64,000 nucleotides of DNA from Rhodomicrobiaceae bacterium. Lineage in GTDB: Bacteria; Pseudomonadota; Alphaproteobacteria; Rhizobiales; Rhodomicrobiaceae. Under the pieces are notes generated by a model that was not told the DNA's origin, did not search any database, and worked only from the letters and a program-made list of their open reading frames with translations. Location of the stretch: positions 7,092-71,091 of the forward strand of contig JBNKTW010000071.1 of the NCBI GenBank assembly GCA_050298295.1. The letters run 5' to 3'. This document shows positions 22,645 to 55,733 of the stretch, piece by piece; position 1 is the stretch's first letter; each line of letters starts with the position of its first letter. A program made the position numbers and the translations under genes.

Positions 22645-22728
22645 ATTTCGGCGCATTTTTACTTGTTTTCGCGCGATTTCTACGGTTCAAAAAACCCGTT
22701 AAATATAATTTAATATTTGAAATTAACC
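22645..22728 (-). repeat. 84-bp intergenic element, copy A (GGTTAAT-N15-ATATTTAA plus phased A-tracts)
   Basis: Ungapped manual alignment to 39669-39752 and 55649-55733. Confidence 0.8.
22698..22713 (-). promoter_or_regulatory. CtrA consensus box
   Basis: Minus strand TTAA-ATTATAT-TTAAC = TTAA-N7-TTAAC. Confidence 0.6.
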
Positions 22729-22973
22729 ATGATTGGCGTCTCAAATCTCGTGCGTGGCGGTGCCGGCGCTAAAATAACAGCAGCGATATCAATAACATAG
22801 CAGCTTAATCGTTATTCAAGACAAACCTGCTATATTTCTTCAAAATCGAGCGCACCCATTCCAACGCTGGAAAAGGGGGCGGGAAAACTGTAAAGACGGT
22901 TAAGGTAGCGTTACCTGGACAGGCTGCGATACGGCCGGGCAGGCCTGACGCCAGGTTAGCGATTGGGGGCTTT

Positions 22974-24119
22974 ATGGCGTACAACCTGCTTGTTCTCGGG
23001 CCGATGCAGCATCGCGTTGGCGACAACATCCTCCGCGATTCCAACACCGCGCGCATCGGCGAAATTCTCGGCCAGATGTCGCAGGCGCTTGGCGAGGGCG
23101 GGCGGCAGCCCTTCCGCGTCGTGACGCCGGAAGACCCCAGCCAGCCGGCTATCGTCGAACTCGTCTTGAGCGAGATCGAGAAGGCCGATCTCGTGGTTCT
23201 CGACCTGACGGGCAGCCGGCCGAGCGTGGCCTACGAAGCCGGAATCATCCACGCGCTTGGCATTCCGCACATCTTCGTCACCGAAGACGAGGAGACTTCG
23301 TTCTACTTCTCGTCGGTGCGCGTGATCCGCGGCTTGCAGCTTGGCTCCGATTTCAATCCCGCCAATCCAGGGCCGAGCCATGGCGAGCTGTTCGCCAGGC
23401 TCAAGACGTTCCTGAGTGACGCCAACGCCAGGGCCGATATGGCCGGCAATATTCTCACCGCTCATTTCGAAGGCCTGCCCATCATTGATCTGGCCGGGCC
23501 TGCCGGGATGGCCGCGAGCTATTACACCAACGCGGTGCGGCGCTTCATCCGGCCCGGCGGTTTCGCGGGCAGGGAATGCAAGCTCATGCTGAAGGAAGAG
23601 CGATCCGCGCGCTTTGGCAAAGGAACCGTCACATCCACGCGCACGGTTCCCGCGACCGTCAAGGCGCTTATTGCCGTGGAGCCGCCCGCCAAGCTTGTCA
23701 GGAGCTTTTTCGAGGACGACAAGGCGCTTAAGGCGGAGCTGAAGGGACTGGGCATCGAGCTGGAGCGGGCAACAATCGCCGGCGATGATCCGCTCGACAA
23801 GCGCGACTATGGCGGCTGGTTCGACGCGAAGGGCATCGCGCGCGGCGCCACGGTCTGCATCGAGATCCCGACTATTGTTTACCCTTTGACGGAGTCGCCG
23901 AGGATTTTACGGCTCAAGAAACACCGGGCCAAGTTCGAGGGCGAGCAGCGGCAAATCATGCAGGAGGTGGAGGAGCGCGCGCTCGAAAAACTGCTGGCCT
24001 CGTTCAAACGCAACCTTCTTTATCACATTGATATGGAACACGAAGCCACCAAGAGCGGTTTCCATTACGTGCCGCTGTCCGGCCTCCCCGCCCTGCTGCG
24101 GCAGGTGGGAGCGCTGTAG
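22974..24119 (+). CDS. Nucleoside 2-deoxyribosyltransferase-like domain fused to a prokaryotic STING-like domain
   Basis: N-term IEKADLVVLDLTGSRPSVAYEAGIIHALGIP (NDT-like, YE). C-term PAGMAASYYTNAV, KRDY, EIPTIV, EERALEKLLASFKRNL (STING-like motifs in the expected order). Confidence 0.75.
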   Translation: MAYNLLVLGPMQHRVGDNILRDSNTARIGEILGQMSQALGEGGRQPFRVVTPEDPSQPAIVELVLSEIEKADLVVLDLTGSRPSVAYEAGIIHALGIPHIFVTEDEETSFYFSSVRVIRGLQLGSDFNPANPGPSHGELFARLKTFLSDANARADMAGNILTAHFEGLPIIDLAGPAGMAASYYTNAVRRFIRPGGFAGRECKLMLKEERSARFGKGTVTSTRTVPATVKALIAVEPPAKLVRSFFEDDKALKAELKGLGIELERATIAGDDPLDKRDYGGWFDAKGIARGATVCIEIPTIVYPLTESPRILRLKKHRAKFEGEQRQIMQEVEERALEKLLASFKRNLLYHIDMEHEATKSGFHYVPLSGLPALLRQVGAL

Positions 24120-24371
24120 CCGCGGGGGCTGACCCATGCAAAAAAAGCATGGCTTGGGTGTCACAGCAAAGTGCCTAAATTATATGCAATTTGGCTGGGC
24201 TGTTTACATCTCTGTATACAATGCAATAAGATTGCGCTGACCGGTTTGAAAATTTCTGGTTAAAAGCCGGAGGATCATCCGCCGCGAATAAGATATTGTG
24301 CAGTGCATCGGGGCCGCAGAGTGAAGGAACAGCAGCAGGGCCGGCCAGCTCAGACACGGCCGGGAAGCGAC

Positions 24372-25343
24372 GTGTTGGACCTGAACCTGAGGTCTCTCGA
24401 CACCTTCGTGCAAATAGCGGAAAGCGGCGGCATGAGTTCCGCGGCCCGCCGGATGAAGCTTACTCAGTCGGCTGTCAGCCAGATCATCCAGAGTCTTGAG
24501 CGCTCGCTCGATGTGGCTCTCTTCGACCGCAAGGTCCGCCCCATCGCCCTGACGCCTTCGGGTGTTATACTTCTGGAGAAAGCCCGCGGGTTGCTGCTTG
24601 CAGCGCGCGAGGCGATCAGGAGCGTGAAGGAGCCGGAAACGGCGGCTTTCCCAAAGCTCAATCTTTGCCTGGTCGAGAGTATCACGGCCACCATCGGGCC
24701 AGGTTTTGCCCGGGATATTCAAGGGTTTGCCGATCTTTGGTCGGTGCATACGGGCTTGCCTAGCCAGCATAGCCGCGCGCTGCTTGCGCGGGAGGCGGAC
24801 ATCGTGCTGACCCCAGATCCCCTGGAAGAACACCCGAATATCGAGCGGTACGAGATCCTGAAAGAGCCGTTCTTCATTGCCTTGCCGAAGGATTTTGCCG
24901 GGGATTCAGTGAACCTGCCGGCGCTTGCCGCGCAGCACGACCTCATCCGGTTCAGCGCGCGCACTATGATGGGACGCCAAGTGGGGCGGCATCTGGAGCG
25001 GCTCAAGGCGGACACCACCGGCCGGCTGGAATTCGACAGCGCCACCGCTATCCTGGCGATGGTTACGGCCGGCCTCGGCTGGGCCGTCATCACCCCCCTC
25101 TGCGCGCTCCTGGGGCGGGCCTTCTGGTCCGAGGTCAGGTTTGTGCCGATGCCCGGTCCGGCGCTTCACCGCCGGCTCTACGTCGTCGCCCGGCATGGAG
25201 AGTTTGGCGACATCCCAAGGCGGATCGCCAATGCCGCCATCGAGCGGAACCGGAAATCCTTGCACAATCATTTCGCCGATTATCCGTGGATCCTCGAAGG
25301 TTGCACAATCCCCGATTTCATCGGCACCACCAGCCGAACCTGA
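24372..25343 (+). CDS. LysR family transcriptional regulator
   Basis: HTH (SSAARRMKLTQSAVSQ, LFDRKVRPIALT) plus substrate-binding domain; GTG start approximate. Confidence 0.92.
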   Translation: MLDLNLRSLDTFVQIAESGGMSSAARRMKLTQSAVSQIIQSLERSLDVALFDRKVRPIALTPSGVILLEKARGLLLAAREAIRSVKEPETAAFPKLNLCLVESITATIGPGFARDIQGFADLWSVHTGLPSQHSRALLAREADIVLTPDPLEEHPNIERYEILKEPFFIALPKDFAGDSVNLPALAAQHDLIRFSARTMMGRQVGRHLERLKADTTGRLEFDSATAILAMVTAGLGWAVITPLCALLGRAFWSEVRFVPMPGPALHRRLYVVARHGEFGDIPRRIANAAIERNRKSLHNHFADYPWILEGCTIPDFIGTTSRT

Positions 25344-25450
25344 AGCAATCGCCACGGCGTCCTGGGCTGAGACCGGGCGGCACCGCCATGCCCCGCCATG
25401 CGTCTCATGGGGTGAAGCCACGGTTCTGGCAGCGGAAAACAGCCGTCAGC

Positions 25451-26149
25451 TCAGGCGACTGCCTCATAGCGCCGCGTCAGCTCGCCGCCGGCAAGAAACG
25501 CCTCCAAGGCCGGGAAGCTGTTCACCACCGCTTTCGCCCCGCTTCGCTTGAGATCGGCCGCCGCATGGTAGCCCCAGCTCACGCCGATGCCTGGCACGTT
25601 CGCGCATGTGGCCATGATCATGTCGAAGGAGGTGTCGCCGATCATAACGGTTGTTTCCGGGCTGGCGCCTGTTTCCTCCATGGCCTGCAGAAGCATTGCC
25701 GGATGCGGCTTCGACGGGGCGTTGTCCGCGGTCTGCACCGTCACGAACATGCCGTGCAGGCCGTTCTGCCCGATAAGGCGGTCTACACCGCGGCGGGATT
25801 TTCCGGTGGCAAGGCCGAGCAAGACGTTGCTCTTCGCCGCGAGGCTGAAAAGCAGGGAAGCCGCGCCCTCGAACAGGGGCTCTTCCCATTCCGGCTGGCG
25901 GCGCAGGTTCATGCACCATTCGCGGTAGGAGCGGGCAAGCCCGTTTCTGGCATCCGGGTACAGGTCCGGCGCCAGCATGTTCATGGCTTCGGGAATGGAA
26001 AGGCCTACGGTGCGTAAAATACCGGAGCGCTCCGGCACGGGAAGGCCCGCGTCCTGGAAGGTCCGGCGCATGGCCTCCACGATCAGCCGCTGGCTATCGG
26101 CGAGGGTACCGTCGCAGTCAAAAACAATAAGATTGGGTGCCAATGTCAT
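25451..26149 (-). CDS. HAD-IA family hydrolase (phosphoglycolate phosphatase-like)
   Basis: FDCDGTL, ATGKS, SKPHP, MIGDTSFD. Confidence 0.92.
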   Translation of the reverse strand: MTLAPNLIVFDCDGTLADSQRLIVEAMRRTFQDAGLPVPERSGILRTVGLSIPEAMNMLAPDLYPDARNGLARSYREWCMNLRRQPEWEEPLFEGAASLLFSLAAKSNVLLGLATGKSRRGVDRLIGQNGLHGMFVTVQTADNAPSKPHPAMLLQAMEETGASPETTVMIGDTSFDMIMATCANVPGIGVSWGYHAAADLKRSGAKAVVNSFPALEAFLAGGELTRRYEAVA

Positions 26150-26258
26150 TTCGAACCATCGCCTAACTCTGGCGGTGCACCGTTTCATAGCGCAACACCA
26201 GCAATGCTGAACCGCCCCGGTTGGGTTGCGCAGATTGTATCAGAACTGCAACCCTGGG

Positions 26259-27269
26259 TTAAACCCGGGCTGACATCTTGCCCCCCGGACTTTCGTAGGG
26301 CTGTGCATCGAACCCCAGAAGCTCGAATGTTCCCGCCATGTGCGGAGGGAGCGGCGCGGAGATGTCAAGATCTCCGATTTTCGCGTCCTTTAGTGTCAGG
26401 CGCCGGGCATGAAGGTGCAATTTGTTCTCAATCCCGTCCATTGGCATTTCGGCTATTTGCCCATATTTCTGGTCGCCTAAAATGGGAGTGCCCAGAATAT
26501 CCATGTGGGCGCGGAGCTGGTGCTGGCGGCCCGTTACGGGCTTCAGCGACAGCCAGGCGAGCTTCTGCGCCGCCCGGTCGATCACCGAATAATAGGTGGT
26601 GGCGTGCTGGGCCAAGTCCTGCTCGCCGGGTCTTGCCTTGCGCACACGGTCCCCCTCCGGCCCCGCCGCCTTCACGAGCGGAGCCTCAACCTTGCCTTGC
26701 GGCGGCTTAGGCACGCCGCGAACGATGGCCCAATAGATTTTCTGCACCGAACGCGTCTGGAACAGCCGGCCGAGGCGCGCCGCCGTTTGCCGGTCCTTCG
26801 CCACCACGAGAATGCCGGAAGTGTCGCGGTCGAGCCGGTGCACGAGGCGCGGGCGTTCGCCGCCGAAGCGATCCGCCATGCCCGCGAGCAGGCCATCGAT
26901 ATGGCGCTTGGTGTTCGTGCCGCCCTGCACCGCGATGCCGAACGGCTTGTTGAGCACGGCGATGTACTCGTTCTCGAACACGATCATGCGCTCGATAAAG
27001 TCGCGATCGGCCTTGGAGAGGCCGGGCGGTGGCTTGAGCGATGGCGCGGGCGCAGCCTCGGGCGCGGCGAAATGCGTGGGGATGCGGACTTCCTGGCCCG
27101 TGGACAGCCGCGCATCCGCCTTCATGCGCCCGCCATCGACACGGACCTGGCCCGTGCGCACGAGCTTCTGAACCAGCGTATGCGGCAGCGACGGATAGTA
27201 TTTCTTCAGCCAGCGGTCGAGACGGAGCCCGTCGTCGTCCGCCCTGACAGCGCGTTTCTCGATGCTCAT
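26259..27269 (-). CDS. rluC: RluA family pseudouridine synthase (RluC-like)
   Basis: S4 domain (RLDRW..RTGQVRVDG), HRLDRDTSG, TGRQHQLR, LHLHA. Confidence 0.9.
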   Translation of the reverse strand: MSIEKRAVRADDDGLRLDRWLKKYYPSLPHTLVQKLVRTGQVRVDGGRMKADARLSTGQEVRIPTHFAAPEAAPAPSLKPPPGLSKADRDFIERMIVFENEYIAVLNKPFGIAVQGGTNTKRHIDGLLAGMADRFGGERPRLVHRLDRDTSGILVVAKDRQTAARLGRLFQTRSVQKIYWAIVRGVPKPPQGKVEAPLVKAAGPEGDRVRKARPGEQDLAQHATTYYSVIDRAAQKLAWLSLKPVTGRQHQLRAHMDILGTPILGDQKYGQIAEMPMDGIENKLHLHARRLTLKDAKIGDLDISAPLPPHMAGTFELLGFDAQPYESPGGKMSARV

Positions 27270-27332
27270 GCCGGCAGTTTGGCTAGGCCGCGCGCAAAGT
27301 AAAGGAAAAGGATGAGCGCCCCCCGGCAGGGG

Positions 27333-28268: not shown

Positions 28269-28412
28269 TACCGGACTTCCCCCCTGCTTACCCAGACAAT
28301 GCCCGCCTCCGCTGCTGCCTCGCAGCCTCAATAGAGCCGCGGTAAATCCCGCACGCCCGCTGGTGCGGCAAACGGGAACGCTGCGGGATGCTCCCCTTGG
28401 GTAGCTATACCG

Positions 28413-28913
28413 CTATTTACCCTCGTCAAAGGGATGCAGCTCCACCTCGGCCACGGCCACCGCGGCATTAAGCCCGGTCTGGCCCTGGATGCTGAGCGGC
28501 TGCAGCGAGATGGTGTTGTCCGATCCGCCGGCCAGCACATGCGCGCCGCCGCCGATAACCGCTGAAGCGTCCGCCGACACGCCGTAATACTTGCCCGCGA
28601 GTGCGCCGGAGGCAACGCCGCGCGATGGCGCAAGTACGGTCCAGGTCAGATATGCGGTGTTGGTGACGCCAAGGTCGAGGCCGTATTTGTTGATCGAGCC
28701 CACATAGCGCTCGCCTTCGTCGCCGGGGCTTGTCCGGAATACGCAGCGCAGCTCCCGCGTGGAACCGAAGATAAAGCCGGCCCCGCCCTTCACGCCGCAG
28801 GTGAGCAGCCCGATCTCGACCCTTTCTCCCGCAGTGGCGCCGGATGCAAATGCCGCACCTATGGCCATGGCCGTAATTGTAATCGTTTTTAGTAATTTCC
28901 CGGACATCTTCAC
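28413..28913 (-). CDS. DUF992 family secreted protein
   Basis: Signal peptide; GLLTC, FIFGSTRELRC, GALAGKYYG, LQPLSIQGQTGLN. Confidence 0.85.
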   Translation of the reverse strand: MKMSGKLLKTITITAMAIGAAFASGATAGERVEIGLLTCGVKGGAGFIFGSTRELRCVFRTSPGDEGERYVGSINKYGLDLGVTNTAYLTWTVLAPSRGVASGALAGKYYGVSADASAVIGGGAHVLAGGSDNTISLQPLSIQGQTGLNAAVAVAEVELHPFDEGK

Positions 28914-29035
28914 CTCCCAGGCTCCCTCATGCCCGGCTTAGCACTGCCTTAGTAAAAAGAAAACACTGGCCGGTACTTTGAAACAACAAAATAGCGTCAT
29001 CCCGTGCGCGGTGGCGCGCACGGGATGGGGGGCAA

Positions 29036-38511: not shown

Positions 38512-38735
38512 GGCGATTCCTCTCCCCTTAACCTTATGTGTTGCATCGCACAAGTAAGCTTGCATGGGGTTTTTGCAAGAAGATATGGCTGGGGCGCGGC
38601 GACTGGGCGCGGGGCCGGCGCCCCCATCCGCTCACATTAGAGAAACTTTTCTTCTGAATTTGCATTTTTTGATCTTAATCATTTTTTATCCTGCCCCTGC
38701 CGGTTATTAGAATTGGTTTAGGCTAGAGGGCGCCC

Positions 38736-39236
38736 ATGGCCTCTATACGGACGCTTAACGACGTGAACAAACCCACGAAATTGGATGCCACCGACTGGCG
38801 AATACTGACCGAACTGCAAAGAAATGGACGGATAACCAATGTAGAGCTTGCCAGCCGGGTGGGCCTTTCGGCTCCACCTTGCCTTAGGCGCGTGCGCGAG
38901 CTGGAGCGCGCCGGCGTTATTTCCGGATATCACGCGGCGTTCAACCTGCCCCGGCTCGGGTTCCACCTGACCGCGTTCGCTTACGTGAAGCTCGAAAGCC
39001 AGTCCGAGGCCGACCTGTCGGCGTTCGAAACGCGCACGCGCCAGTGGGAAATCGTGCGCGAGGCGCACATGCTGTCCGGCGAAATCGATTTCCTGCTGAA
39101 GTGCGTGGCCCCCGATGTCGTGACGTTTCAGAACTTTGTCATCCGTGAGCTGACGGCCGCGCCGAACGTCAGTTCGGTGAAAACGGCCATTACGATCAAG
39201 ACCGCGAAGCAGGAGCCGGGCGCGCCACTGGAGTGA
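38736..39236 (+). CDS. Lrp/AsnC family regulator
   Basis: LDATDWRIL, ITNVELASRVGLSAPPCLRRVR, GEIDFLLK. Confidence 0.94.
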   Translation: MASIRTLNDVNKPTKLDATDWRILTELQRNGRITNVELASRVGLSAPPCLRRVRELERAGVISGYHAAFNLPRLGFHLTAFAYVKLESQSEADLSAFETRTRQWEIVREAHMLSGEIDFLLKCVAPDVVTFQNFVIRELTAAPNVSSVKTAITIKTAKQEPGAPLE

Positions 39237-39386
39237 AGGGCGCGGAGAGGCGGAAATCGCCTGCCCCGCTGCCTTCGCCGGCCGCCACGGGCGGCGCCCG
39301 GCAGGCGACGGCAGTTCGTGCGCCGTTTCTGGCGGCTGTGCGCGTTCTTGCTGGCACCGCGCAATCTCCCAAAGGCGCTGCAACGG

Positions 39387-39476
39387 CGTCATCGCGAGGC
39401 GGCCTTGGCCGCCATGGCAATCCATGGCAGCGCCGGCAGCCCGGCCGTGGATTGCTTCGCTTCGCTCGCAATGGCA
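39387..39476. repeat. REP doublet, GTCATTGCGAGCGAAGCGAAGCAATCC family
   Basis: CGTCATCGCGAGGCGGCCTTGGCCGCCATGGCAATCCA ... TGGATTGCTTCGCTTCGCTCGCAATGGC. Confidence 0.8.
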
Positions 39477-39668
39477 GCATTTTCCGCCTCCGCCGTTAAC
39501 GTTTTCCCGGCAGTTTGGGCCGGCGGGTGGTGTCTTCCGGATTTGAAACAATATAGCAGATGCGCCTTACGGAAGCATTAAGCTGTAGACGGAACACTAA
39601 GTTGCTGCGTAGGAACGGATAATATTGCCGCCGCTTTCGCACTGCGCGTGAGCTTAATACATTCTTCA

Positions 39669-39752
39669 GGTTAATCCGCAAGTTGCGGATATATTTAAAG
39701 GGATTCTGCGAACGTGAAATTCGCGCGAAAACACGAAAAAATCACGCGAAAT
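39669..39752 (+). repeat. 84-bp intergenic element, copy B
   Basis: GGTTAAT-N15-ATATTTAAAGGGATTC...TCGCGCGAAAACACGAAAAAATCACGCGAAAT. Confidence 0.8.
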
Positions 39753-39998
39753 ACGCATCCCGAAGCGGTCCCGCCACGCCGTTAACCTTACCGGCATTAA
39801 GCATACCGCGCCGCGTGGCCAGCTTTACCGGATCTCAAGAATTCCTGAGGAACGGAAAAGCGCCGAAAAACAGCCGCAACGATTAAGTGCTGCGGCGGAA
39901 ATGCGAGCTTGCCTGGCCGCGAAAAATGCCGCCCGCCTCCGGCGGGTCTGTTTCGCTTGGCGTCCGTGACAACGCGCAGATTATAAGACGTAAGGATG

Positions 39999-41204
39999 CT
40001 AAGATTCAGGATTTAATGTTCGGGCCAGACGGAAACCCGCATTGCCGCCGCGGCCGACTGGGGCGCCCCAGATGCGGCCCGCCGCGCGGAGGAACCGTGG
40101 ATCGCTGACCCAGGAACCGCCGCGAAGAACACGGAGACTACTGTCTCCCGTTGTCCAGGCGTCACCAGTGCTTTTCAAGCTTTCGGGCTTATCCCAGTAA
40201 CTCCCATGCCAGACATCCTCGCACCATTCCCAGACATTTCCGTGCATGTCGTGCAAGCCGAAGCCGTTGGGCTGCTTCCCGCCCACGGGATGGGTTTCAC
40301 CGCCTGCGTTGGACGAATACCAGGCATGGCGATCCAGATCGCTTTCGTTACCGCCGAAGGAGTAAGCTGCCTCGCTTCCCGCACGGCAAGCGTATTCCCA
40401 TTCCGCCTCACTCAAGAGACGGTAAGGCTGGCCAGTCTTGTCCGAAAGCCACTTTATGTAAGCCTGCGCGTCGTTCCATGAGACGTTGATGACAGGCCGC
40501 CGCCCGTGCCCCCAGCCTCTGTCGCCTGGCTTATGAGAGACGCCCCCCGCCGCAACCGCGGCGTCCCATTCGTCGAACGTCACCGGATACTTTCCCACCG
40601 CGAAGGCTCGTTGGATCGTCACCTTGTGGCGCGGGCGCTCCCTGTCCTCTCCTTCGCCGTCCTTGGAACCCATCATGAAGCTGCCCGCCGGGATCACAAC
40701 CATCTCCGGCCCTGCGTCAAAATCGCGGAAGCTCTTGCCCGGCTTCGGCTTCTGGCGCTCAACTTCCGGCGCGGGCGTTTCCGCTTTGGCCACGGCTTCG
40801 GCGTACACCACTTCGGCATGATTGCTGGGAGCGATCAGCCTCCGCGCCAGCGCGGCGAAGATCTTCGCGCGGTCGCTCACAAGCGTGATGTTCCCCGACG
40901 TGAACGGCATCGGCACCTTGCGCGGATCGAGCGTTTCTTCGCGCACCTGCAAAAGCTTGCCGTGCGCGTCCCCCTCGCTCGCCTCGGACCAGACCCAGCG
41001 AGACGTCACCGAATGCTCCGCCCAGATCACGATCACGGCCTTCGCCGCCGCGATCTGGGTGCGGATCGTCTCGGGGAAGAACCCGTCGTCCGGCAGAAGG
41101 TTCGTATCCCACCAGGTGGTGTAGCCTTCGGCTTCAAGGTCACGCGCAAGCTCCTTGGTGAGCCGGTCGTGCTTCTTCGAGTATGAGATAAAAATATCGG
41201 CCAT
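39999..41204 (-). CDS. TIR domain + formylglycine-generating enzyme (SUMF1/CLec) domain protein; probable DGR-type target
   Basis: DIFISYS..WVWSEA (TIR with Glu); GPEMVVIPAGSFMMG, RLLSEAEWEYACRAG, DMHGNVWEW, RGGSW..GFRLAR. Confidence 0.9.
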   Translation of the reverse strand: MADIFISYSKKHDRLTKELARDLEAEGYTTWWDTNLLPDDGFFPETIRTQIAAAKAVIVIWAEHSVTSRWVWSEASEGDAHGKLLQVREETLDPRKVPMPFTSGNITLVSDRAKIFAALARRLIAPSNHAEVVYAEAVAKAETPAPEVERQKPKPGKSFRDFDAGPEMVVIPAGSFMMGSKDGEGEDRERPRHKVTIQRAFAVGKYPVTFDEWDAAVAAGGVSHKPGDRGWGHGRRPVINVSWNDAQAYIKWLSDKTGQPYRLLSEAEWEYACRAGSEAAYSFGGNESDLDRHAWYSSNAGGETHPVGGKQPNGFGLHDMHGNVWEWCEDVWHGSYWDKPESLKSTGDAWTTGDSSLRVLRGGSWVSDPRFLRAAGRIWGAPVGRGGNAGFRLARTLNPES

Positions 41205-41404: not shown

Positions 41405-41409
41405 CTCCA

Positions 41410-46724: not shown

Positions 46725-46732
46725 CGCTCAAA

Positions 46733-49195: not shown

Positions 49196-51862
49196 ATGAA
49201 AACCGACGTGCCCCAACCAATCTATCTCAAGGACTACGCGCCGCCGGCCTTCCTGGTCGATGAGACGGTGCTGGATTTTACCCTGTCCCCGGAGGAAACG
49301 CGCGTGCGCTCGCGGCTCTCGCTGCGCCCCAACCCGGCCTCGAAGGCTAAGTCCGGCGTTCTGAAGCTCGACGGAGAGATGCTGAAGCTCATCCGCGTTG
49401 CCATTGGCGGCAAGGAGCTGGACGCTTCGCACTATGAGGTCACGGAAAAGTCCCTCATTATCGAAGGCGTGCCGGCCAAGCCGTTCACGCTTGAAATCGA
49501 GACGGTCTGCAACCCCGAGGCCAACAAGGCGCTGTCGGGCCTCTACCGCAGCAGTGGCGTCTATTGCACCCAATGCGAGGCGGAAGGCTTCCGGCGCATC
49601 ACCTACTATCCCGACAGGCCCGACGTGCTGTCGAAGTTCCGCGTGCGCATCGAAGCGGATGCCAAGGAAGCGCCGGTGCTGCTGTCGAACGGCAATCTGA
49701 TCGAAAGCGGCGATGCGGGCGCCGGCCGGCATTACGCGGTTTGGGAAGACCCATTCCCGAAGCCGGCCTATCTGTTCGCGCTGGTGGCCGGCAAACTCGG
49801 CATGGTGCGGGACAGCTTTTACACCCGCTCGCAGCGCAAGGTTGATCTCCGGATCTACGTCGAGCCGGGCAAGGAGGACCGCTGCGGCTGGGCCATGGAG
49901 TCGCTCAAGCGCGCGATGGAGTGGGACGAAAAGCGCTACGGCCTCGAATATGACCTCGACACCTTCATGATCGTGGCCGTCTCCGACTTCAACATGGGGG
50001 CCATGGAGAACAAGGGGCTCAATATTTTCAACGATGCGCTGATCCTGGCCCGCCCGGACACCGCCACGGACTCCGATTATCAGCATATTGAAGGCGTGAT
50101 CGCGCACGAATACTTCCACAACTGGACCGGCGACCGCGTGACCTGCCGCGACTGGTTCCAGCTCTGCCTCAAAGAGGGGCTTACGGTTTTCCGCGATCAG
50201 GAATTTTCGGCGGACATGCGTTCGGCCGTTGTGAAGCGCATCGGGGACGTGCGGGCCCTAAGGAGCGGGCAATTCCCGGAGGACGCCGGCCCGCTCGCCC
50301 ACCCGGTGCGGCCTTCCTCATTCATCGAGATCAGCAACTTTTATACGCGTACCGTCTACAGCAAGGGCGCCGAGCTTTGCCGAATGATGCAGACGGTGCT
50401 CGGGAAGGAGGGCTTCCGGCGGGGGCTCGATCTTTATTTCGAGCGGCATGACGGGCAGGCGGTCACGGTGGAGGATTTCGTCGCCGCGCTGGGGGACGCG
50501 AATGGCACCGACCTTTCAGGCTTCCTGCTTTGGTACAATCAGGCGGGAACACCGGCGCTCGATGCCCGGCTGACCTATTCGGCCGGTCCGCGGACGGCGC
50601 GGCTCACTCTGTCGCAGTCCTATCCGAATGCCGCCGCCGGGGACAAACGCAAGCCGGTTCCCATTCCGGTCAAGCTTGGCCTGCTGGACGCCAATGGCAA
50701 CGAGTTTCCGCTTAAGAGCGGCGGGAAGCCTGTGCCCGACGGCCTGGTGGTTCTGAGGAAAAAGAAGGAGACTTTCACCTTCGAGGATATCGGCGAGCGT
50801 CCCATCCCGTCGCTGCTGCGGGGCTTCTCCGCTCCGGTCAAGCTCAATGGCGGGGTGAGCGATCGTGACATGCTCACGCTGATGCGCTCGGATAGCGACC
50901 TCTTCAACCGCTGGCAAACCGCGCAGGCTTTCGCGCTGAAGCACATGGTGCAAATGGCCCAGGCGATTGCGGAGGGAAAGCCGGCCCGGCCCAATCCGCG
51001 CTTCGTTCAAGCCGCGGGCGCTGCCGCCGGCGATGAAAGCCTCGAACACGCCTACCGCGCGGCCTTCCTGGTTATGCCATCGGAGCCGGACATCGCGCAG
51101 GCGATTGGCGGAAACATAGACCCCGAAGCAATTCATGCCGCCCGCGCGGCGCTGCGCTCGGCGCTGGGCAAGAGCCTGCGCCCGGTTCTCGAAAACCTGT
51201 ATGAGCAGAGCAAGCCGGCCGAGCCCTACTCGCCGGACCCCGATAGTATTGGGCGGCGCGCACTGCGGCACGCGGCGCTGGGCCTGCTTGCGGCGGGCAA
51301 GAGCCGCTTCGGCATCGCCAAAGTGAAGGAGCTCGCGCGCACCGCTTCCAACATGACCGACGCAATGGGGGCGCTTGGCATCCTCTCGCAGCTTGGCGGC
51401 GAACCTTTCGAAGGCGTGCTTCAACGCTTCCACCGGCGCTGGAAGGACGAAGCCCTGGTTATGGACAAGTGGTTTGCCCTCCAAGCAACCGCGCCCGGCC
51501 GCGAAACGCTGAAGCGCGTGGCGGAGCTTGCCTCTCATCCGCTGTTCTCGATCAAGAACCCCAACCGCGCGCGCTCGCTTTACGGCGCGTTCGCGCATGG
51601 CAATCAGGTGCGCTTCAACGACGCCAGCGGGCAGGGCTACGAACTGGTGGCGAATGCGGTGATCGAAATCGACAGCTTTAATCCACAGATTGCTTCGCGG
51701 CTGCTCAGCGCCTTCGAAAGCTGGCGGATTTTGGAGCCCCAGCGCAGGGGCCTCGCGGAAGCCGCGCTGCGGCGTGTGCTCGCCAAAAAGGCAATTTCGC
51801 GGGACCTGTTTGAAATTGCCACAAAAATACTTGGCCAAGAGGCCGGTAAAGTGGCAGCTTAG
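49196..51862 (+). CDS. pepN: Aminopeptidase N
   Basis: TQCEAEGFRRIT, GAMENKGLN, HEYFHNW, LKEG, VYSKGAE. Confidence 0.97.
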   Translation: MKTDVPQPIYLKDYAPPAFLVDETVLDFTLSPEETRVRSRLSLRPNPASKAKSGVLKLDGEMLKLIRVAIGGKELDASHYEVTEKSLIIEGVPAKPFTLEIETVCNPEANKALSGLYRSSGVYCTQCEAEGFRRITYYPDRPDVLSKFRVRIEADAKEAPVLLSNGNLIESGDAGAGRHYAVWEDPFPKPAYLFALVAGKLGMVRDSFYTRSQRKVDLRIYVEPGKEDRCGWAMESLKRAMEWDEKRYGLEYDLDTFMIVAVSDFNMGAMENKGLNIFNDALILARPDTATDSDYQHIEGVIAHEYFHNWTGDRVTCRDWFQLCLKEGLTVFRDQEFSADMRSAVVKRIGDVRALRSGQFPEDAGPLAHPVRPSSFIEISNFYTRTVYSKGAELCRMMQTVLGKEGFRRGLDLYFERHDGQAVTVEDFVAALGDANGTDLSGFLLWYNQAGTPALDARLTYSAGPRTARLTLSQSYPNAAAGDKRKPVPIPVKLGLLDANGNEFPLKSGGKPVPDGLVVLRKKKETFTFEDIGERPIPSLLRGFSAPVKLNGGVSDRDMLTLMRSDSDLFNRWQTAQAFALKHMVQMAQAIAEGKPARPNPRFVQAAGAAAGDESLEHAYRAAFLVMPSEPDIAQAIGGNIDPEAIHAARAALRSALGKSLRPVLENLYEQSKPAEPYSPDPDSIGRRALRHAALGLLAAGKSRFGIAKVKELARTASNMTDAMGALGILSQLGGEPFEGVLQRFHRRWKDEALVMDKWFALQATAPGRETLKRVAELASHPLFSIKNPNRARSLYGAFAHGNQVRFNDASGQGYELVANAVIEIDSFNPQIASRLLSAFESWRILEPQRRGLAEAALRRVLAKKAISRDLFEIATKILGQEAGKVAA

Positions 51863-52087
51863 TCAGGTGTAACCTTAGTTCGATTCGCTCGCGCGGGGCT
51901 TGCGTCCTCCGGCGCCGCCTACCGGAGCGGCGTTAAGCAGCCGCGCGGCGCAATGGATCGTTGGTGTGAGCGCGCGGTATCTACCTTAAGTGGCTGGGCA
52001 CAAGGCTGCGTGGCAAGGTTTTATTAACCAAGACCCGGCAAAGTTAAGATCTCAGTTACGAAGAGTTCAATCCACCGGCAGGACGGC

Positions 52088-53998
52088 ATGGCTATAAATG
52101 CAACGCGCCAGTCATACATCCAGCCCCAGTCCGCTTCAGACGAGCGGCTTCCGGGGGGGAAGAGCCTAGCTTCGAGGGCAGGGCCGCTTTTGGCGAACCT
52201 GCGGCGGAAGGCCGAAACGCACGCTCAGGCTCTGGCGATGGCGCTGGGGTTCCTCGCTTTGCTGCTGCCCGCGGTCAGTGCGTTCAGTCACGGCGTGCTC
52301 GGCGCCGCCAGCAACCTGATAGCGCTGTCCGCCGCCGCGATTGCGCTCGTGCTGGTCTATAAGGCGGGCCGCCGGGACGCCGAGGGGTTTGAAAGCCGGG
52401 CGCAGTATTACAGCACGCAGTCGCAATGCGTCGCGGCCGCGGGCGGCGCGGTTTTGCGCTGGAACCTTGTGGACGGCGAGCTGACCTGGGCGGGTGGGGC
52501 GCAAGGGGTTTTCAGCAACTGCGATGCTCCGGCCAACTTCCGGGATTTGAGCCCATATCTGCACCCCGAGGACTCGGTCTACAATCTCGTCTCGGAGGCG
52601 CTCAAGGCCCATTCCCGCAACGTGTGCTGGACGCTCAGGCTCAAGGATGGCGAGCGCGGCTGGCGCGCCTACAGCCTGCGCGGCCAGATCGACCATGGCG
52701 GCCGGGCCAATCCCGCGCCCGTCTTTTCGGGCGTCTTGCTGCCCCAGGAGACGGCGCACGCCCATACGCCGCCGGAGCAGGGCGGCACTGCGCGCATACG
52801 GGCCATCATAGAGGCGCTGCCGATGGCCTTCGTGGTCTGGGACAGCTCGAAGCGGCTACAGCTTTGCAATCGCAAGTTCCGCCAAATCTACCGGATCGCT
52901 CCAGGGAAGGCGCTCCCCGGAACGCCGTTCGGCGACTTGCAGAACCATGCCAAGGAGCTGTTGCTGCAAGGCCCCACGGACACGGCCGGCGCTCCCGGCC
53001 GTTTCCAGCTTAGTGAAAAGCAGATGGGCGACGGCACTTGGCTGCAGGTTTCTGAATATTGGACGGCTGACGGCGCCATGGTGAGCGTCGGCACGGATAT
53101 CACCGTGCCGAAAGTGAACGAGCAGCGGCTGCTTGAGCGCGAGCGCGAGATGCGCGCGACCGTCGAGATTTACGAGCAGAGCCGCAGGCAGCTCGAAGTG
53201 CAGACACACCAGCTCCGCGCGCTCGCCGAAGGCTACAATGAAGAGAAAATCCGCGCCGAGGCCGCCAACAAGGCGAAATCCGAGTTCCTGGCCAATGTCA
53301 GCCATGAACTGCGCACGCCGCTTAACGCGATCATCGGCTTCTCCGAGATGATGCGCGACCAGGTGCTTGGGCCCATCGGCAACGAGAAATACGAAGACTA
53401 CGCGACGGACATTGCTTCCAGCGGCCAATACCTGCTCGAAATGATCAACGATATTCTCGACATGTCGAAGATCGAGGCGGGCCGCGTGACGATCAAGCCG
53501 GAATGGTTCCCGCTCGCGCCGCTGCTTCAGGAGTGCGCCCGCGTGGTCGAGACGGCGGCCAAGGAGCGCGAGGTCGAAGTCGCGATGGCCGGAAATTCGA
53601 ACGTCCAGGTGCACGCGGATCAGCGCGCGCTCAAGCAGATTTTACTCAATCTGCTGGCGAATGCCGTGAAGTTCAGCCTGGCGGGCGGCAAGGTCGTGCT
53701 CCGGGCCACGAAGTACAAGGGTAACATCCGTATAGCCATCAGCGACACCGGCGTCGGGATCGCCAAGCACGAACTGCCGCGCCTGGGCAAGCCCTTCGAG
53801 CAGGTCGGCAGCCAGCTTACCAAGGAGCACAAGGGCACCGGGCTTGGGCTCGCGATCTCGCGGTCGCTGGCGGAGCTGCATGGCGGCAAGCTCGACATCA
53901 AGAGCAAGCCAGGGGAGGGCACGACCGTCACCTGCGTGCTGCCCGCGCAGGAGGCGAAGTCCGCCGCCAGGGCCTCCGCCACGAAGGCAGCGGCGTGA
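52088..53998 (+). CDS. pleC: PleC-like PAS sensor histidine kinase
   Basis: PAS-like domains, AEAANKAKSEFLANVSHELRTPLNAIIGFSE, HATPase boxes; adjacent to pepN. Confidence 0.8.
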   Translation: MAINATRQSYIQPQSASDERLPGGKSLASRAGPLLANLRRKAETHAQALAMALGFLALLLPAVSAFSHGVLGAASNLIALSAAAIALVLVYKAGRRDAEGFESRAQYYSTQSQCVAAAGGAVLRWNLVDGELTWAGGAQGVFSNCDAPANFRDLSPYLHPEDSVYNLVSEALKAHSRNVCWTLRLKDGERGWRAYSLRGQIDHGGRANPAPVFSGVLLPQETAHAHTPPEQGGTARIRAIIEALPMAFVVWDSSKRLQLCNRKFRQIYRIAPGKALPGTPFGDLQNHAKELLLQGPTDTAGAPGRFQLSEKQMGDGTWLQVSEYWTADGAMVSVGTDITVPKVNEQRLLEREREMRATVEIYEQSRRQLEVQTHQLRALAEGYNEEKIRAEAANKAKSEFLANVSHELRTPLNAIIGFSEMMRDQVLGPIGNEKYEDYATDIASSGQYLLEMINDILDMSKIEAGRVTIKPEWFPLAPLLQECARVVETAAKEREVEVAMAGNSNVQVHADQRALKQILLNLLANAVKFSLAGGKVVLRATKYKGNIRIAISDTGVGIAKHELPRLGKPFEQVGSQLTKEHKGTGLGLAISRSLAELHGGKLDIKSKPGEGTTVTCVLPAQEAKSAARASATKAAA

Positions 53999-54265
53999 GG
54001 CGTGGCTGCTTTGGCAGCTGGACCTGCCCGGCGGGCGGGCAGTGCGTGCCGGAAGCAACACTGGGCCGGCCGCCGCTTGCCCCACCTTGATCTCGCCGCA
54101 AATTATCTTAAATCGAATGCGCCGGGGCGCTGAGCCTCGAACCTCTCTGTACCCTGTTCGCACTAAATTAGCGGAATCAGGGTCTTCTAGCAGTGCCGCA
54201 GCTTCCGCAGGAGAACGGATCGGCGGAAGGCACGCTTGCGGGCACAAACAACGAGTACAGTCAAT

Positions 54266-55480
54266 ATGACCATAAGTGAAGAAGTAGCCGTCCCAAGCGG
54301 TCTCGGCTTGGCCGAACCAGTTCCTTCCCGCGGCGGCCTGGCAATCGCGGAACGCCCGCGAGTAGCGCAGCTCCAGGCCTGGCGGAATTCCTTCAGGGCG
54401 CAGCGCAAGGATAGCCGGTATTACGAGATCGTCGAGAACACGATCTGCCCGGATTTCGATTTCCGCTACTTCCTTATCCAGGACGAATACGGACGCACCA
54501 GAGCCGTACAGCCCTTTTTCGTCCTCGATCAGGACGTACTCGCAGGGCTTGAGCCGCGCTGGCAGAAGCTCGCCGCAAAAATCAGGCGCTTCTGGCCGCG
54601 CTTCCTTTTTATCCGCACGCTGATGGTAGGCTGCGCGGCGGGCGAGGGCCATCTGCCTTCCGGCGCCGCGGCCGCGCAGGAACTCGATGCCGAAGCGCTC
54701 TCCGCCAACATCTGCCGGCTGGCAAGGCAGGAGGGCGCGGGGCTGATCGTGCTCAAGGAATTCCCGGCCCGCTACAGGGACACGCTCTCCGCCTTCCTGA
54801 AGCGCGGCTTCACGCGCATCCCCAGTATGCCCATGACACGGCTCGATATTTCGGGCTTCAAGGACTTCGACGACTACCTGGCCAAGGCCATCAAGAGCAA
54901 GCGGCGCAATGAATTCAGGCGCAAGTTCAAGGCCGCCACGCAGTCCGCGCCCATCGAGCTGGAAGTCGTCCGGGATGCGTCCGGCGTAGTGGATGAAATT
55001 TATCCGCTGTACCTGCAGGTGTATAACCGCTCCAAAATGCAGTTCGAGAAGCTTACGAAGGAATATTTCGCCGAAATCGGGCAAAGAATGCCCGACAAGG
55101 CGCGGTTCTTCCTGTGGCGGCAGAACGGTAAAATCATCGCCTTCGCGCTCAATATGGTAGAAGGTGACACGCTATACGGAGAATACATCGGATTCGACTA
55201 CGAAGTCGCATTGAATATTCACCTCTACTTCTACGTTATGCGCGATATGGTGGCCTGGTCTATCGCGAATGGCTACAAAACCATCCAAAGCAGCGGCTTA
55301 AGTTATGCGCCCAAACTGCAAATGGCGCATGAACTGGCGCCGCTCGACCTCTATGTCCGGCATACCTCGCCGCTGATCAATCCCATCATCAAATTCATCC
55401 TGCCCTGGCTTGAGCCCACGGCCTCGGAACCTTTGCTCAAACAGTTCAAGAATTACGGAGAGCTGTGGGCCAAACCTTAA
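54266..55480 (+). CDS. GNAT-fold (FemAB/BioF2-like) acetyltransferase family protein
   Basis: FDDYL..IKSKRRNEFRRK, YFAEIG, GEYIGFDY, SGLSYAPK pattern. Confidence 0.75.
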   Translation: MTISEEVAVPSGLGLAEPVPSRGGLAIAERPRVAQLQAWRNSFRAQRKDSRYYEIVENTICPDFDFRYFLIQDEYGRTRAVQPFFVLDQDVLAGLEPRWQKLAAKIRRFWPRFLFIRTLMVGCAAGEGHLPSGAAAAQELDAEALSANICRLARQEGAGLIVLKEFPARYRDTLSAFLKRGFTRIPSMPMTRLDISGFKDFDDYLAKAIKSKRRNEFRRKFKAATQSAPIELEVVRDASGVVDEIYPLYLQVYNRSKMQFEKLTKEYFAEIGQRMPDKARFFLWRQNGKIIAFALNMVEGDTLYGEYIGFDYEVALNIHLYFYVMRDMVAWSIANGYKTIQSSGLSYAPKLQMAHELAPLDLYVRHTSPLINPIIKFILPWLEPTASEPLLKQFKNYGELWAKP

Positions 55481-55648
55481 CAGCGCCCGGATGGAGGGCG
55501 GCGGGGCTGGCCTGGCCGCGCCGCTTTCCATGTTGAGACAATCTAGCAGAGATGTTTCAACATGGCGTTAAGCGCATGACGATCGCGCAAGAGGCTGAAT
55601 TGTAAGTGGAAAACCCACCGGTGCGGCGCCTTGGGGGTGAGCAGGGAA

Positions 55649-55733
55649 GGTTAATCCGGAGCCTGCGTTTATATTTAACGGGATTCCGCGCACATGGAAT
55701 TTCGCCCAAAACGCGCAAAAACGCCGCCAAAAT
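55649..55733 (+). repeat. 84/85-bp intergenic element, copy C
   Basis: GGTTAAT-N15-ATATTTAACGGGATTC...TCGCCCAAAACGCGCAAAAACGCCGCCAAAAT. Confidence 0.8.

Follow-up and report, generated by a model that had tools for sequence, protein, structure and literature searches.

The 64-kb window (the whole stretch of DNA that was analyzed) contains three copies of a non-coding element, referred to as A, B, and C, whose neighbors are conflict-system genes: STING-like, TIR-FGE, and CHAT-NACHT-TPR. An earlier note, made from the sequence of the window, had described the element as 84 bp long and alignable without gaps. The pattern GGTTAAT-N15-ATATTTAANGGG matches exactly these three places with no mismatches, compared to 0 matches expected from 100 dinucleotide-preserving shuffles. 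Over 84 nt, the ungapped identity of A and B is 57/84, the same as had been counted by hand; it is 61/84 for B and C and 49/84 for A and C. The alignment is ungapped for A and B and nearly so for C, where the segment is 85 nt long and has one additional base in the rigid module described below.

The 84-bp feature is thus real, yet it is a fragment of a larger unit. Homology continues for ~130 to 200 bp further upstream and ~90 bp further downstream, and a dispersed, non-coding repeat with a unit of ~340 to 490 bp has the 84-bp motif as its core (HMM homology covers ~275 bp; the alignment extends further). Open frames on both strands of the unit are not conserved proteins. An 11-codon frame, MMRLYAKYTVP (ATG..TAA), lies within the distal boxes of copy A and was judged incidental. 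The last box of copy B is TTTACC at +155, with no TTAA at +166; that of copy C is TTAAC at +155, followed by CCTCC. In copy C, the left TTAA lies partly within the stop codon of the FemAB/GNAT-like gene upstream of it.

Coordinates of the repeat copies and their parts in the window
Feature	Position	Strand	Basis and make-up
Copy A, whole unit, ~358 bp	22559..22916	−	Sequence; nhmmer 22850-22587, E 9e-68; left extension aligned. Left-end box GGTAACGCTACCTTAAC, GC hairpin with CTCGATTTTG, block 1, rigid module ending in TTAA
Copy A, 84 bp of the earlier note	22645..22728	−	First half of rigid module: GGTTAAT, N15, ATATTTAACGGG, hairpin-like palindrome, A-tracts
Copy A, distal boxes	22559..22616	−	GTTTACCAT at +113, ATTTACCATG at +128, TTAA at +166
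Copy B, whole unit	39496..39830	+	nhmmer 39535-39820, E 3e-80. GTTAAC, hairpin with CCGGATTTG, block 1 (GAAACAATATAGCAG...TTAAGC), variable spacer, rigid module
Copy B, 84 bp of the earlier note	39669..39752	+	Pattern match, alignment
Separate REP-like unit adjoining copy B	39380-39480		
Copy C, whole unit	55477..55810	+	nhmmer 55527-55801, E 3e-71
Copy C, 85 bp of the earlier note	55649..55733	+	Pattern match, alignment

The repeat family and the architecture of its unit

A scan of relatives, which the earlier note had proposed, covered 185,579 species genomes and gave at least 98 matches, with a true copy in 93 of the listed loci. These at least 93 related copies (E values down to 1e-41) come from five to eight Hyphomicrobiales MAGs of Rhodomicrobium type, four of which contain at least 25, 22, 21, and 15 copies. 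Searches of plasmid, phage, and viral-contig collections produced no match. Within the collections searched, only an uncultured Rhodomicrobium-related clade of Hyphomicrobiales carries the family, each genome with dozens of copies, which makes the repeat a marker of this clade. The median pairwise identity between copies is 56%. The sets of copies analyzed below differ by test: 93 listed loci; 92 copies for boxes, tracts, and terminators; 80 for invariance and RNAalifold; and 57 full copies for folding.

The unit consists, in order, of a TTAAC-type box, a terminator-like GC-rich hairpin with a T-tract, an indel-rich block, and a rigid module. The left-end box has the form xTAA-N7-TTAAC in a third of copies (TAA-N7-TTAAC is found there in 30/92 copies in the forward orientation vs 0 in reverse). 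The 3′ arm of the hairpin abuts TTTTCGATTTTG, which gives it the look of an intrinsic terminator. The minimum free energy hairpin of the left module stops right before TTTTCGATTTTG in most of the 57 full copies, with an energy z-score against shuffles that is weak (mean −0.67); a strict terminator scan called the left hairpin in only 16/92 copies and in 0/3 window copies. In the A-tract region, a hairpin with a T-run is present on the reverse strand in 73/92 copies and on the forward strand in 5. The indel-rich block reads ..GTAATATAGCAG..CTTGAG..GTTAAG..CATTGATAT, and its last part is IHF-like on the other strand; the IHF-like consensus is found in a quarter of copies.

The rigid module closes the unit and is 170 bp long and nearly free of indels. 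It starts with the invariant GGTTAAT-N15-ATATTTAANGG(G); GGTTAA and ATATTTAA..G do not vary among 80 copies, while the N15 spacer is constant in length and free in sequence across the family, as had been noticed for the three window copies. The phased A-tracts seen there also turned out to be a family-wide property. Counted from the first G, four runs of at least 3 A are located at +49 to 51 (64% of the 92 copies), +59 to 62 (91%), +68 to 72 (85 to 96%), and +79 to 82 (94%). Their centers, at approximately +50, +60.5, +70, and +80.5, are spaced by 10 to 10.5 bp, and the autocorrelation has its maximum at a lag of 10 to 11. A-tracts repeated in helical phase, every ~10 to 11 bp, predict intrinsically curved DNA. 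The extra TTAAC/TTTACC sites reported downstream are likewise conserved as TTTACC(AT)/TTAACC(AT) boxes at +113 and +128, with a further box position at +166, each ±1, and GGAGG often follows the last TTAA. The two ends of the consensus share a direct repeat, ACGCCAAATTAAC / ACGCGAAATTAAC.

Resemblance of the boxes to CtrA and SciP sites

Published CtrA motifs are TTAA-N7-TTAA and TTAACCAT, and the predicted SciP motif is (G/A)TTAACCAT(A/G) (PMC4083442; PMC6180460). In 775 kb, TTAACCAT occurs 64 times inside copies vs once outside. The exact motif is located at +128 in 37/92 copies, TT[TA]ACCAT at +113 in 36/92, and WATCAANNNNTTR is present in 23/92 copies vs 1 on the control strand. An inverted 10-mer at GGTTAAT was found in 17/92 copies, and only 5/92 have a strict full box close to the right end. 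The TT(T/A)AC core is nearly universal among copies, but the full CtrA/SciP motif is not, and the invariant blocks GGTTAAT and ATATTTAANGG correspond to no described CtrA site. A GATTC after the second TTAA is present in B and C, as had been stated, and absent from A; it occurs in 41/92 copies of the family. The proposed link to CtrA is only a resemblance of sequence, with an exact match in ~40% of copies at one site, a full left-end box in ~33%, and GANTC in less than half. We regard the likeness to CtrA/SciP boxes as partial and as a lead.

Genomic context, possible mobility, and competing readings

The orientation of copies relative to adjacent genes is random (upstream 47+/41−, downstream 43+/40−), in agreement with the earlier view that the element is unlikely to be a simple shared promoter. 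No orientation bias relative to GC skew was detected (46 vs 47), and no gene family recurs beside the copies. TIR, STING-like, and CHAT-NACHT genes are frequent neighbors. Of the copies, 54 lie in tandem, 15 in convergent, and 10 in divergent intergenic regions, with 150, 64, and 59 such regions in the background.

Several observations point to past movement. Some copies within one genome are 86 to 93% identical, their homology stopping sharply after 375 to 490 bp between unrelated flanks. Collinearity with the window is interrupted at copies in L004, L008, and L055. Upstream of rplU, two genomes carry a copy and three do not, one of these three being fen_921, with its at least 15 copies at other sites; because the flanking intergenic DNA is not alignable between filled and empty genomes, no insertion junction can be read at this locus. 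Like MITEs, the repeat is short (340 to 490 bp compared to a limit of <~600 bp), non-coding, multicopy, and dispersed between genes (at least 93 copies in five to eight genomes). No target-site duplication was visible at the ends of recent copies, and a clean empty site was found for no copy. Self-comparison of the consensus revealed no terminal inverted repeats in the main subfamily, where the similarity of the ends is direct and not inverted; subfamily II has only a weak imperfect inverted pair. Among genes neighboring the copies, no partner transposase, recombinase, or autonomous element sharing the ends was found; four DDE transposase genes lie near copies, none of them flanked by the repeat. 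Several copies occupy orthologous positions in different MAG species, next to rplU, hemA, metH, and meaB; therefore, most are old, and mobility is sporadic at best.

The earlier note had offered three interpretations, a protein-bound, intrinsically curved site, a multicopy ncRNA promoter, or a target or scar for cassette insertion, which are supported in part. The ncRNA reading assumes multicopy small RNA genes with a GGTTAAT-N14-TATATT promoter, a start near the invariant GGG, and an A-rich RNA with two short hairpins. The two invariant blocks and their fixed spacer do resemble a −35/−10 pair: the near-consensus −10 element TATATT is present in 80/92 copies, some of which read TTGgtt-N17-TATATT. 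A hairpin-like palindrome follows straight after TATATT (at least 5/6 pairs in 79/92 copies) and folds better on the forward than on the reverse strand, a gene of this kind would be insulated by the terminator-like hairpin ahead of it, and contigs from peat metatranscriptomes contain at least four different paralogous copies at a depth of 2 to 19. Yet these contigs span the core and cross the supposed promoter (with ends that could be unitig artefacts), only 29/92 copies have TTG before GG, a sigma-70 scan found 0 sites in all three window copies, and a genuine housekeeping promoter of the same clade is TTGACA-N17-GATAAA. Rfam returned 0 matches at the gathering score and nothing beyond noise when E was relaxed to 10. 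RNAalifold on 80 copies yielded 0 pairs, and the two candidate hairpins show no covariation (73.1% of cells pair vs 73.8% in shuffles, with only 6 compensatory cells), so neither mark of a structured RNA family, a curated match or covariation, was seen. There is no consistent downstream terminator (17/92 copies vs 10/92 in the control), and the strict length of segments with variable sequence would be unusual for RNA stems and loops. We consider ncRNA genes unlikely. A portable outward promoter or 5′ leader, possibly activated by CtrA and driving the gene past the TTAACC boxes as well as a divergent gene via the left box, appears quite unlikely. It would agree with the geometry of CtrA-activated promoters, where the box is near −35 and the start site is 23 to 24 nt beyond it (PMC6180460), with the frequent GGAGG after the last TTAA, with the CHAT-NACHT-TPR start 160 nt downstream of copy C, a linkage kept in locus L012, and with co-oriented TIR genes that start 136 to 150 nt downstream of a copy in L042 and L037. 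However, in about half of the cases the gene next to a copy has its 3′ end toward it, no gene downstream of A or B is co-oriented with the copy, divergent regions are not enriched (10/79 for copies vs 59/273 in the background), and nothing is conserved at the −10 position past the last box.

The third interpretation, insertion of cassettes, has some indirect support from the variable gene content and the breaks in synteny beside copies. It can be extended to a recombination or att-like site, or recombinase accessory sequences, used for capture or exchange of accessory genes; the bend and the IHF-like site would fold an intasome-like complex. Sites such as attP and res/cer combine multiple direct and inverted boxes with a bend and an IHF site, and the repeat, with boxes in both orders, a predicted bend, and an IHF-like site, recalls them. 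Gene content at the right end is variable: the window and L012 have CHAT-NACHT there but L055 lacks it, and the single TIR gene of L015 corresponds to three TIR paralogues in L037. Copies coincide with breaks in synteny, and the ends share the direct repeat. No recombinase gene is linked to the copies, though, and neither an att-like duplication nor an empty site could be delimited; the end repeats differ at their variable positions within a copy and therefore are not duplicated cores. Solo boxes are rare outside copies (TAAC-N6-TTAAC twice), and many copies lie between housekeeping genes without accessory DNA. We judge a recombination site to be very unlikely. For a common promoter class shared among genes, or for AT-rich intergenic DNA that is similar by chance, nothing speaks beyond the AT-richness of the segment, and the probability is negligible given the 3 matches vs 0 expected, the 93 listed homologous copies, and their random orientation.

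Of the three original options, the protein-bound, curved site fits best, considering the invariant boxes with their fixed spacer, the 170 bp nearly free of indels, the phased A-tracts, and the TTAACC(AT) boxes, which are similar to the published CtrA half-site and the predicted SciP motif. The reading we prefer, and to which we would assign an even chance from these sequence patterns, is a MITE-like mobile non-coding cassette whose selected core would be a bent protein-binding scaffold, usable by neighbors as an insulator or regulatory site. The repeat would be, or recently have been, a MITE-type copy-and-paste element that some enzyme mobilizes in trans, and selection would hold DNA geometry constant rather than an RNA or a peptide. 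The rigid module might then present sequence-specific proteins at a fixed helical phase; the best candidates are CtrA and SciP, which regulate the cell cycle of Alphaproteobacteria, at the TTAACCAT-type boxes, joined by architectural proteins such as IHF or those of MucR type. The left hairpin with its T-tract and the opposite-strand hairpin with its T-run in the A-tract region would shield the complex from read-through transcription; the core-spanning metatranscriptome contigs, if real RNA, would argue against complete insulation. Such a cassette could serve as a portable insulator and regulatory site wherever it inserts, in the window for conflict-system genes. It is also conceivable, if unlikely, that the mobile cassette spreads CtrA/SciP platforms together with a bend and insulators, putting new conflict or immune genes (TIR, STING-like, and CHAT-NACHT) under cell-cycle-gated or silenced expression. 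The transposon-borne transcription-factor sites of eukaryotes would then have a counterpart in bacteria.

If the preferred reading holds, the repeat is a family kept constant by DNA geometry over 170 bp despite a median identity of 56%, whereas typical bacterial MITEs are defined by transposon ends. Nearly all TTAACCAT boxes in the sampled regions are, moreover, found within its copies. The repeat would be a testable case of a mobile element that spreads sites for regulators or architectural proteins in a bacterial genome and might explain the control of conflict-gene islands in budding, dimorphic Hyphomicrobiales. An old, decaying MITE would be an ordinary finding. In practice, short-read assemblies of the MAGs that carry the repeat break at it.

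Comparison with known systems

The repeat resembles the Correia elements (CREE) of Neisseria in being short, non-coding, multicopy, and intergenic in either orientation, with an IHF-type site, transcription signals able to affect neighbors, and subfamilies with alternative internal modules. Correia elements are 100 to 155 bp long and have clear terminal inverted repeats and a TA duplication, whereas the unit described here is 340 to 490 bp long, has no convincing inverted termini or duplication, and combines direct-repeat-like end boxes with a 170-bp indel-free core containing phased A-tracts. E. coli BIME/RIP (REP plus an IHF site), pneumococcal BOX, and rhizobial RIME are likewise mosaics that alternate conserved boxes with variable linkers and number tens to hundreds of copies, and for them as for the repeat a role in nucleoid architecture and in ending transcripts is plausible. 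REP sequences are imperfect palindromes of ~35 bp that often come in pairs, in genomes that encode a RAYT transposase. Unlike BIME, the unit contains no REP-type 35-bp palindrome with a GTAG head; it has TTAAC-type boxes, a far longer module, and rigid spacing.

Regions controlled by CtrA/SciP, such as S-phase promoters and Caulobacter Cori with its CtrA boxes, IHF site, and GANTC, share with the repeat the TTAACCAT-type boxes, xTAA-N7-TTAAC, an IHF-like site, AT-rich DNA in a GC-rich genome, and GANTC, which is present in about half of the copies. Those regions are single-copy and tied to particular genes or to the origin, while the repeat is dispersed and gene-independent, and its spacing of 15 bp between direct boxes and 126 bp to the inverted box differs from the 11-bp spacing of a CtrA dimer. 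Finally, attP and res/cer sites also have several protein-binding repeats in fixed spacing about a bend, intrinsic or induced by IHF, within ~200 to 300 bp. They are, however, single sites beside recombinase genes, and the repeat family consists of dozens of diverged copies with no linked recombinase.

Extent and anatomy of the repeat

Exact matches to GGTTAAT-N15-ATATTTAANGGG were found at three sites in the window (0 mismatches; 0 expected from 100 dinucleotide-preserving shuffles). They correspond to copies A, B, and C, three occurrences of an intergenic repeat that an earlier note had described as an 84-bp element. Their coordinates are as that note gave them, the identity of copies A and B (57/84) equals its hand count, and GATTC follows the second TTAA in copies B and C, as it had claimed; on these grounds, the observation is confirmed. 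Ungapped identity is 61/84 for B-C and 49/84 for A-C. The absence of internal gaps holds for A and B and nearly for copy C, which has one extra base. The element is thus real; however, it is considerably larger than described, being part of a longer unit that belongs to a large family.

In a three-way alignment, similarity runs well past 84 bp on both sides. Copies A, B, and C share an upstream block, TTGAA.(A/C)AAT(A/C)TAGCAG..N20..TTAAGC, and, downstream, TTTACC/TTAACC boxes. A hidden Markov model (HMM) of the three copies detected no further ones in the window. Alignment with relatives added an extra left part of 50 to 70 bp, and recent paralogues have 375 to 490 bp in common.

Parts of the unit, HMM matches, and adjoining genes (numbers with a plus sign, here and in the text, take the first G of GGTTAAT as origin and run in the direction of copies B and C; L numbers denote loci fetched from metagenome-assembled genomes, MAGs)
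Feature	Position	Strand	Description
84-bp part, copy A	22645-22728	-	
84-bp part, copy B	39669-39752	+	
84-bp part, copy C	55649-55733	+	
HMM match, copy A	22850-22587	-	HMM of three copies, ~275 bp
HMM match, copy B	39535-39820	+	HMM of three copies, ~275 bp
HMM match, copy C	55527-55801	+	HMM of three copies, ~275 bp
(a) Left box, main subfamily			(T)GTAACGCCA-NN-TTAAC(TCTCC)
(b) GC-rich hairpin			variable sequence; 3' arm ends directly before TTTTCGATTTTG in most full copies
(c) Block 1			GAAGTAATATAGCAG..CTTGAG.AAGCGTTAAG, then 0-25 variable bases, then TAAG.CATTGATAT
(d) GC-rich spacer			45-75 nt, length variable
(e) Rigid module, palindrome			GGGATT(C/T)..(G/A)AATCC, hairpin-like
(e) Rigid module, after A-tracts			TCGCAAAAATGCG, then variable 25 nt
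(e) Rigid module, end			cTACGCGAAA..AC, then TTAA
(f) Subfamily II (L069, L042, L007, L082, others)			left module GGCTGGCATAAGTCTCTGGCGCACCAT..CTCCTGTTAACG, hairpin, then TTTTCAATTTTATACAATATAGCAC
Gene beside copy A	22974-24119	+	weak matches, below Pfam cut-offs in both cases: prok_STING and nucleoside 2-deoxyribosyltransferase-like
Gene beside copy B	39999-41204	-	TIR_2 + FGE-sulfatase
Gene beside copy C	55966-59769	+	CHAT-NACHT-TPR

At the left box, TAA-N7-TTAAC is present in the forward orientation in 30/92 copies and in reverse in 0. The hairpin and T-tract of the left part resemble an intrinsic terminator; under strict criteria, a terminator scan accepted 16/92 copies and 0/3 window copies. 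The end of block 1 reads ATATCAATG.CTTA on the other strand, where it matches WATCAANNNNTTR, which we take to be the IHF consensus, exactly in 23/92 copies versus 1 on the control strand. Two stretches of the rigid module, GGTTAA(T) and ATATTTAA..G, do not vary among 80 aligned copies, and a spacer of 15 separates them in every case. A-tracts at +49-51, +59-62, +68-72, and +79-82 are present in 64-96% of copies, with an autocorrelation peak at lag 10-11. Farther on lie GCGTTTACC(AT) at +113 (80/92 copies), ATTAACC(ATG) at +128 (86/92), and TTAA at +166 (58/92), each +/-1.

In subfamily II, the second subfamily of the repeat, the left module differs in sequence and follows the same logic as in the main subfamily. 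A second short inverted-repeat family, CTTATACCAACCGCC / GGCGGTTGGTATAAG(TCTCTGG), occurs in the flanks of subfamily-II copies (L007, L082, L042, L020, and L038); one of its arms forms the left end of these copies, a hint that repeats are nested or mosaic. At window positions 39380-39480, just upstream of copy B, there is a REP-like palindrome that belongs to the "CATTGCGAGCGAAGCGAAGCAATCC" repeat type of Hyphomicrobiales, and units of this type also flank copies in other genomes (L069 and L038).

Distribution and neighboring genes

Scanning 185,579 species-representative genomes with an 18-base pattern yielded at least 98 stretches. Among the loci fetched from the matches listed, 93 were true copies by HMM (E down to 1e-41). 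Within the matches listed, every true copy comes from a MAG with the label Alphaproteobacteria, Hyphomicrobiales, or Rhodomicrobium sp., except for one on a 4.5-kb contig that was binned as Bacteroidetes; at the few pattern matches in other phyla, the rest of the element is absent. Genomes carry 25, 22, 21, 15, 3, 2, or 1 copies among the matches listed. Since those on a 2.49-Mb contig of MFD06085.bin.1.7 are roughly 100 to 700 kb apart (again among the matches listed), the three window copies within 33 kb represent a local cluster. Orientation relative to local GC skew is unbiased (46 against 47), and a +/- switch along one 2.5-Mb contig was apparent only, as it involved too few copies. The window itself (62% GC) is absent from the genome collection scanned; genes that it shares with copy-carrying MAGs are about 75 to 85% identical. 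No blastn matches were obtained in 72,556 plasmids and 50,697 phage records, and the single IMG/VR pattern match, located in 31% GC DNA, was dismissed as chance.

Copies occupy tandem, convergent, and divergent intergenic regions in a ratio of 54/15/10 versus 150/64/59 among the remaining intergenic regions of these loci. No neighbor protein family recurs beyond orthologous pairs. Copy B has the 3' end of an Lrp/AsnC gene on one side and the terminators of the convergent TIR-FGE gene on the other. The low-complexity translation of an ORF at 38718-39551 (-) led to its rejection as a gene; the true neighbor there is the Lrp/AsnC gene, 38736-39236 (+).

While the window is otherwise core chromosome (suf operon, ruvA/ruvC, pepN, an RND efflux pump, LysR regulators, and a histidine kinase), each of its three copies adjoins one accessory conflict-system-type gene. 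PADLOC returned weak TIR/TPR domain matches for the three genes and nothing more, and none is therefore assigned to a catalogued defence system. TIR, FGE, caspase, and TPR proteins adjoin copies in L002, L015, L037, L042, and L086 too; this association with conflict-type genes is suggestive only. At L037:4226-7925 (MFD02416), a copy is immediately followed downstream by three tandem TIR-domain paralogues, and the orthologous locus L015 (MFD04428) has one TIR gene. A low-GC island at window positions 59877-63000 (45-49% GC versus the window mean) contains two unannotatable ORFs and an HTH_3 protein and has a syntenic counterpart in L055. Between copy C and this island, the window and L012 have the CHAT-NACHT-TPR gene, which is missing in L055.

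Proposed mobility and alternative readings

In the reading that we find most likely, to which we give about even odds, the repeat is a MITE-like, sporadically mobile non-coding cassette; its conserved core would be a bent scaffold to which proteins bind, bearing CtrA/SciP-like boxes and putative insulators at its flanks. Over the 174-nt module, median pairwise identity is 56% (95th percentile, 68%). A few within-genome pairs are 86-93% identical (L069/L042/L007, L097/L043, and L014/L003); in these, homology ends sharply after 375-490 bp and the flanks are unrelated. Older copies share a position in different MAG species, beside rplU, hemA, metH, meaB, and others. The rplU locus has a copy in MFD02416 (L049) and MFD06085 (L093); with 3 mismatches allowed, none was found there in fen_921 (L101), another MAG (L102), or Rhodomicrobium sp. 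(L103). RplU of fen_921 is 90% identical to that of L049, and fen_921 carries at least 15 copies elsewhere. Intergenic DNA at the locus is not alignable, so neither a junction nor a duplication is readable. Upstream of rplU-rpmA, four genomes (L049:2270-2434, L101, L102, and L103) share a highly conserved region made up of a TTGACA-N17-GATAAA promoter and a ~130-nt leader, which may be a regulatory leader of the L21 type.

Also among the signs of copy-and-paste, window synteny with L004, L008, and L055 stops at a copy. No linked transposase or recombinase was found beside copies, and the consensus ends are not inverted but direct-repeat-like, ACGCCAAATTAAC and ACGCGAAATTAAC; both points argue against classical transposition. 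An att-like recombination site is a reading we hold to be very unlikely. Compared by eye, Xer/dif and lox-like sites appear not to fit the repeat in spacing or sequence, nor do sigma-54, sigma-28, ECF, and LexA/Fur/FNR-type motifs. Candidate empty sites in metagenome contigs aligned to the window were repeat-induced chimeric joints and nothing else, and the "opposite strand" joints that link copy A to copy B are assembly chimeras. In the short-read assembly of the source run (window positions 22693/22782 and 39077-40378), contigs end within copy A, and contig depth is two- to three-fold higher over copies because paralogues pile up. A family of small RNA genes appears unlikely. In three peat metatranscriptomes from the same study as fen_921, at least 4 different paralogous copies turn up on contigs (depth 2-19) that span the variable spacer, GGTTAAT...TTTAAC, and beyond; as these contigs are unstranded, end at conserved stretches where k-mer assemblies break, and may be DNA carry-over, they show that family sequences occur in RNA libraries, no more than that. 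Such copies were seen in runs X16-X18, e.g., L005:6562-6627. Window sequence was found in metagenome DNA runs only and in none of the RNA runs searched. Rfam had no match at gathering score and none with E relaxed to 10, the search for tRNAs found none, and RNAalifold predicted 0 pairs for 80 copies. In two candidate hairpins, 73.1% of cells pair versus 73.8% in column shuffles, with only 6 compensatory cells, so that covariation is absent; a mutual information scan detected T/A alternation between boxes and no other signal. No consistent terminator follows the unit (17/92 versus 10/92 on the control strand), which has no defined 3' end.

Short reading frames were rejected as well. An 11-codon ATG..TAA frame is present in about half of copies, the ATG is missing in the rest, and its "codons" follow the GC hairpin or boxes; reverse-strand frames that begin at the left box ("MALHR...", "MVRQRLMPAV...") show conservation over just ~5-12 residues and then run into variable-length junk. 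On both strands, such frames are by-products of the boxes with no coding function. A portable outward promoter or leader is quite unlikely in our estimate. A TTG suitably spaced from the conserved TATATT is present in 29/92 copies; for comparison, an actual housekeeping promoter of the clade, upstream of rplU, is TTGACA-N17-GATAAA. Scans of the three window copies found 0 canonical sigma-70 promoters, and copies A and B have no co-oriented gene downstream. Across the family, 47 copies are co-oriented with the nearest gene upstream and 41 are divergent from it; for the nearest gene downstream, 43 are co-oriented and 40 convergent. These near-even counts bear out the earlier view that orientation to genes is inconsistent and a simple shared promoter unlikely; the repeat is not a promoter class of particular genes.

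Predicted scaffold and comparison with known systems

Returning to the cassette with a protein-binding core, segments of free sequence hold their exact length over 170 bp, whereas the left half of the unit is rich in indels. Such fixed lengths would be expected of helical phasing between bound proteins, not of RNA stems or neutral decay. The module may thus serve as a bent scaffold holding proteins at a fixed helical phase. Four A-tracts in phase are a textbook cause of intrinsic curvature, and the module is predicted to be curved on this basis. On the strand opposite the A-tract region, a short hairpin followed by T-runs is present in 73/92 copies versus 5 forward. Together with the left hairpin and T-tract, it would form a putative block to transcription from either side, and a two-sided stop would suit a complex that is not to be transcribed through. 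The sequence GTAATATA / TATATTTAA presumably resembles a Ros box (Ros/MucR).

CtrA binds TTAA-N7-TTAA and ungapped TTAACCAT (PMC6180460). For SciP, ChIP-seq peaks in Caulobacter led to the predicted motif (G/A)TTAACCAT(A/G) (PMC4083442). The 775 kb of loci contain TTAACCAT 64 times within copies and a single time elsewhere. At +128, 37/92 copies have it in exact form; TT[TA]ACCAT is found at +113 in 36/92, and an inverted 10-mer at GGTTAAT in 17/92. The two invariant blocks, GGTTAAT and ATATTTAA, are not a described CtrA site. Since the box match is partial as well, CtrA/SciP is a lead rather than a result.

Classical MITEs are defined by inverted ends, a duplication, and a partner transposase; the repeat appears to depart from them in these features and likewise falls outside the definition of REP/BIME elements. 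Because it differs from both and no published description of the family was found in the literature searched, we file it under a known kind, the dispersed intergenic repeat, as a variant.
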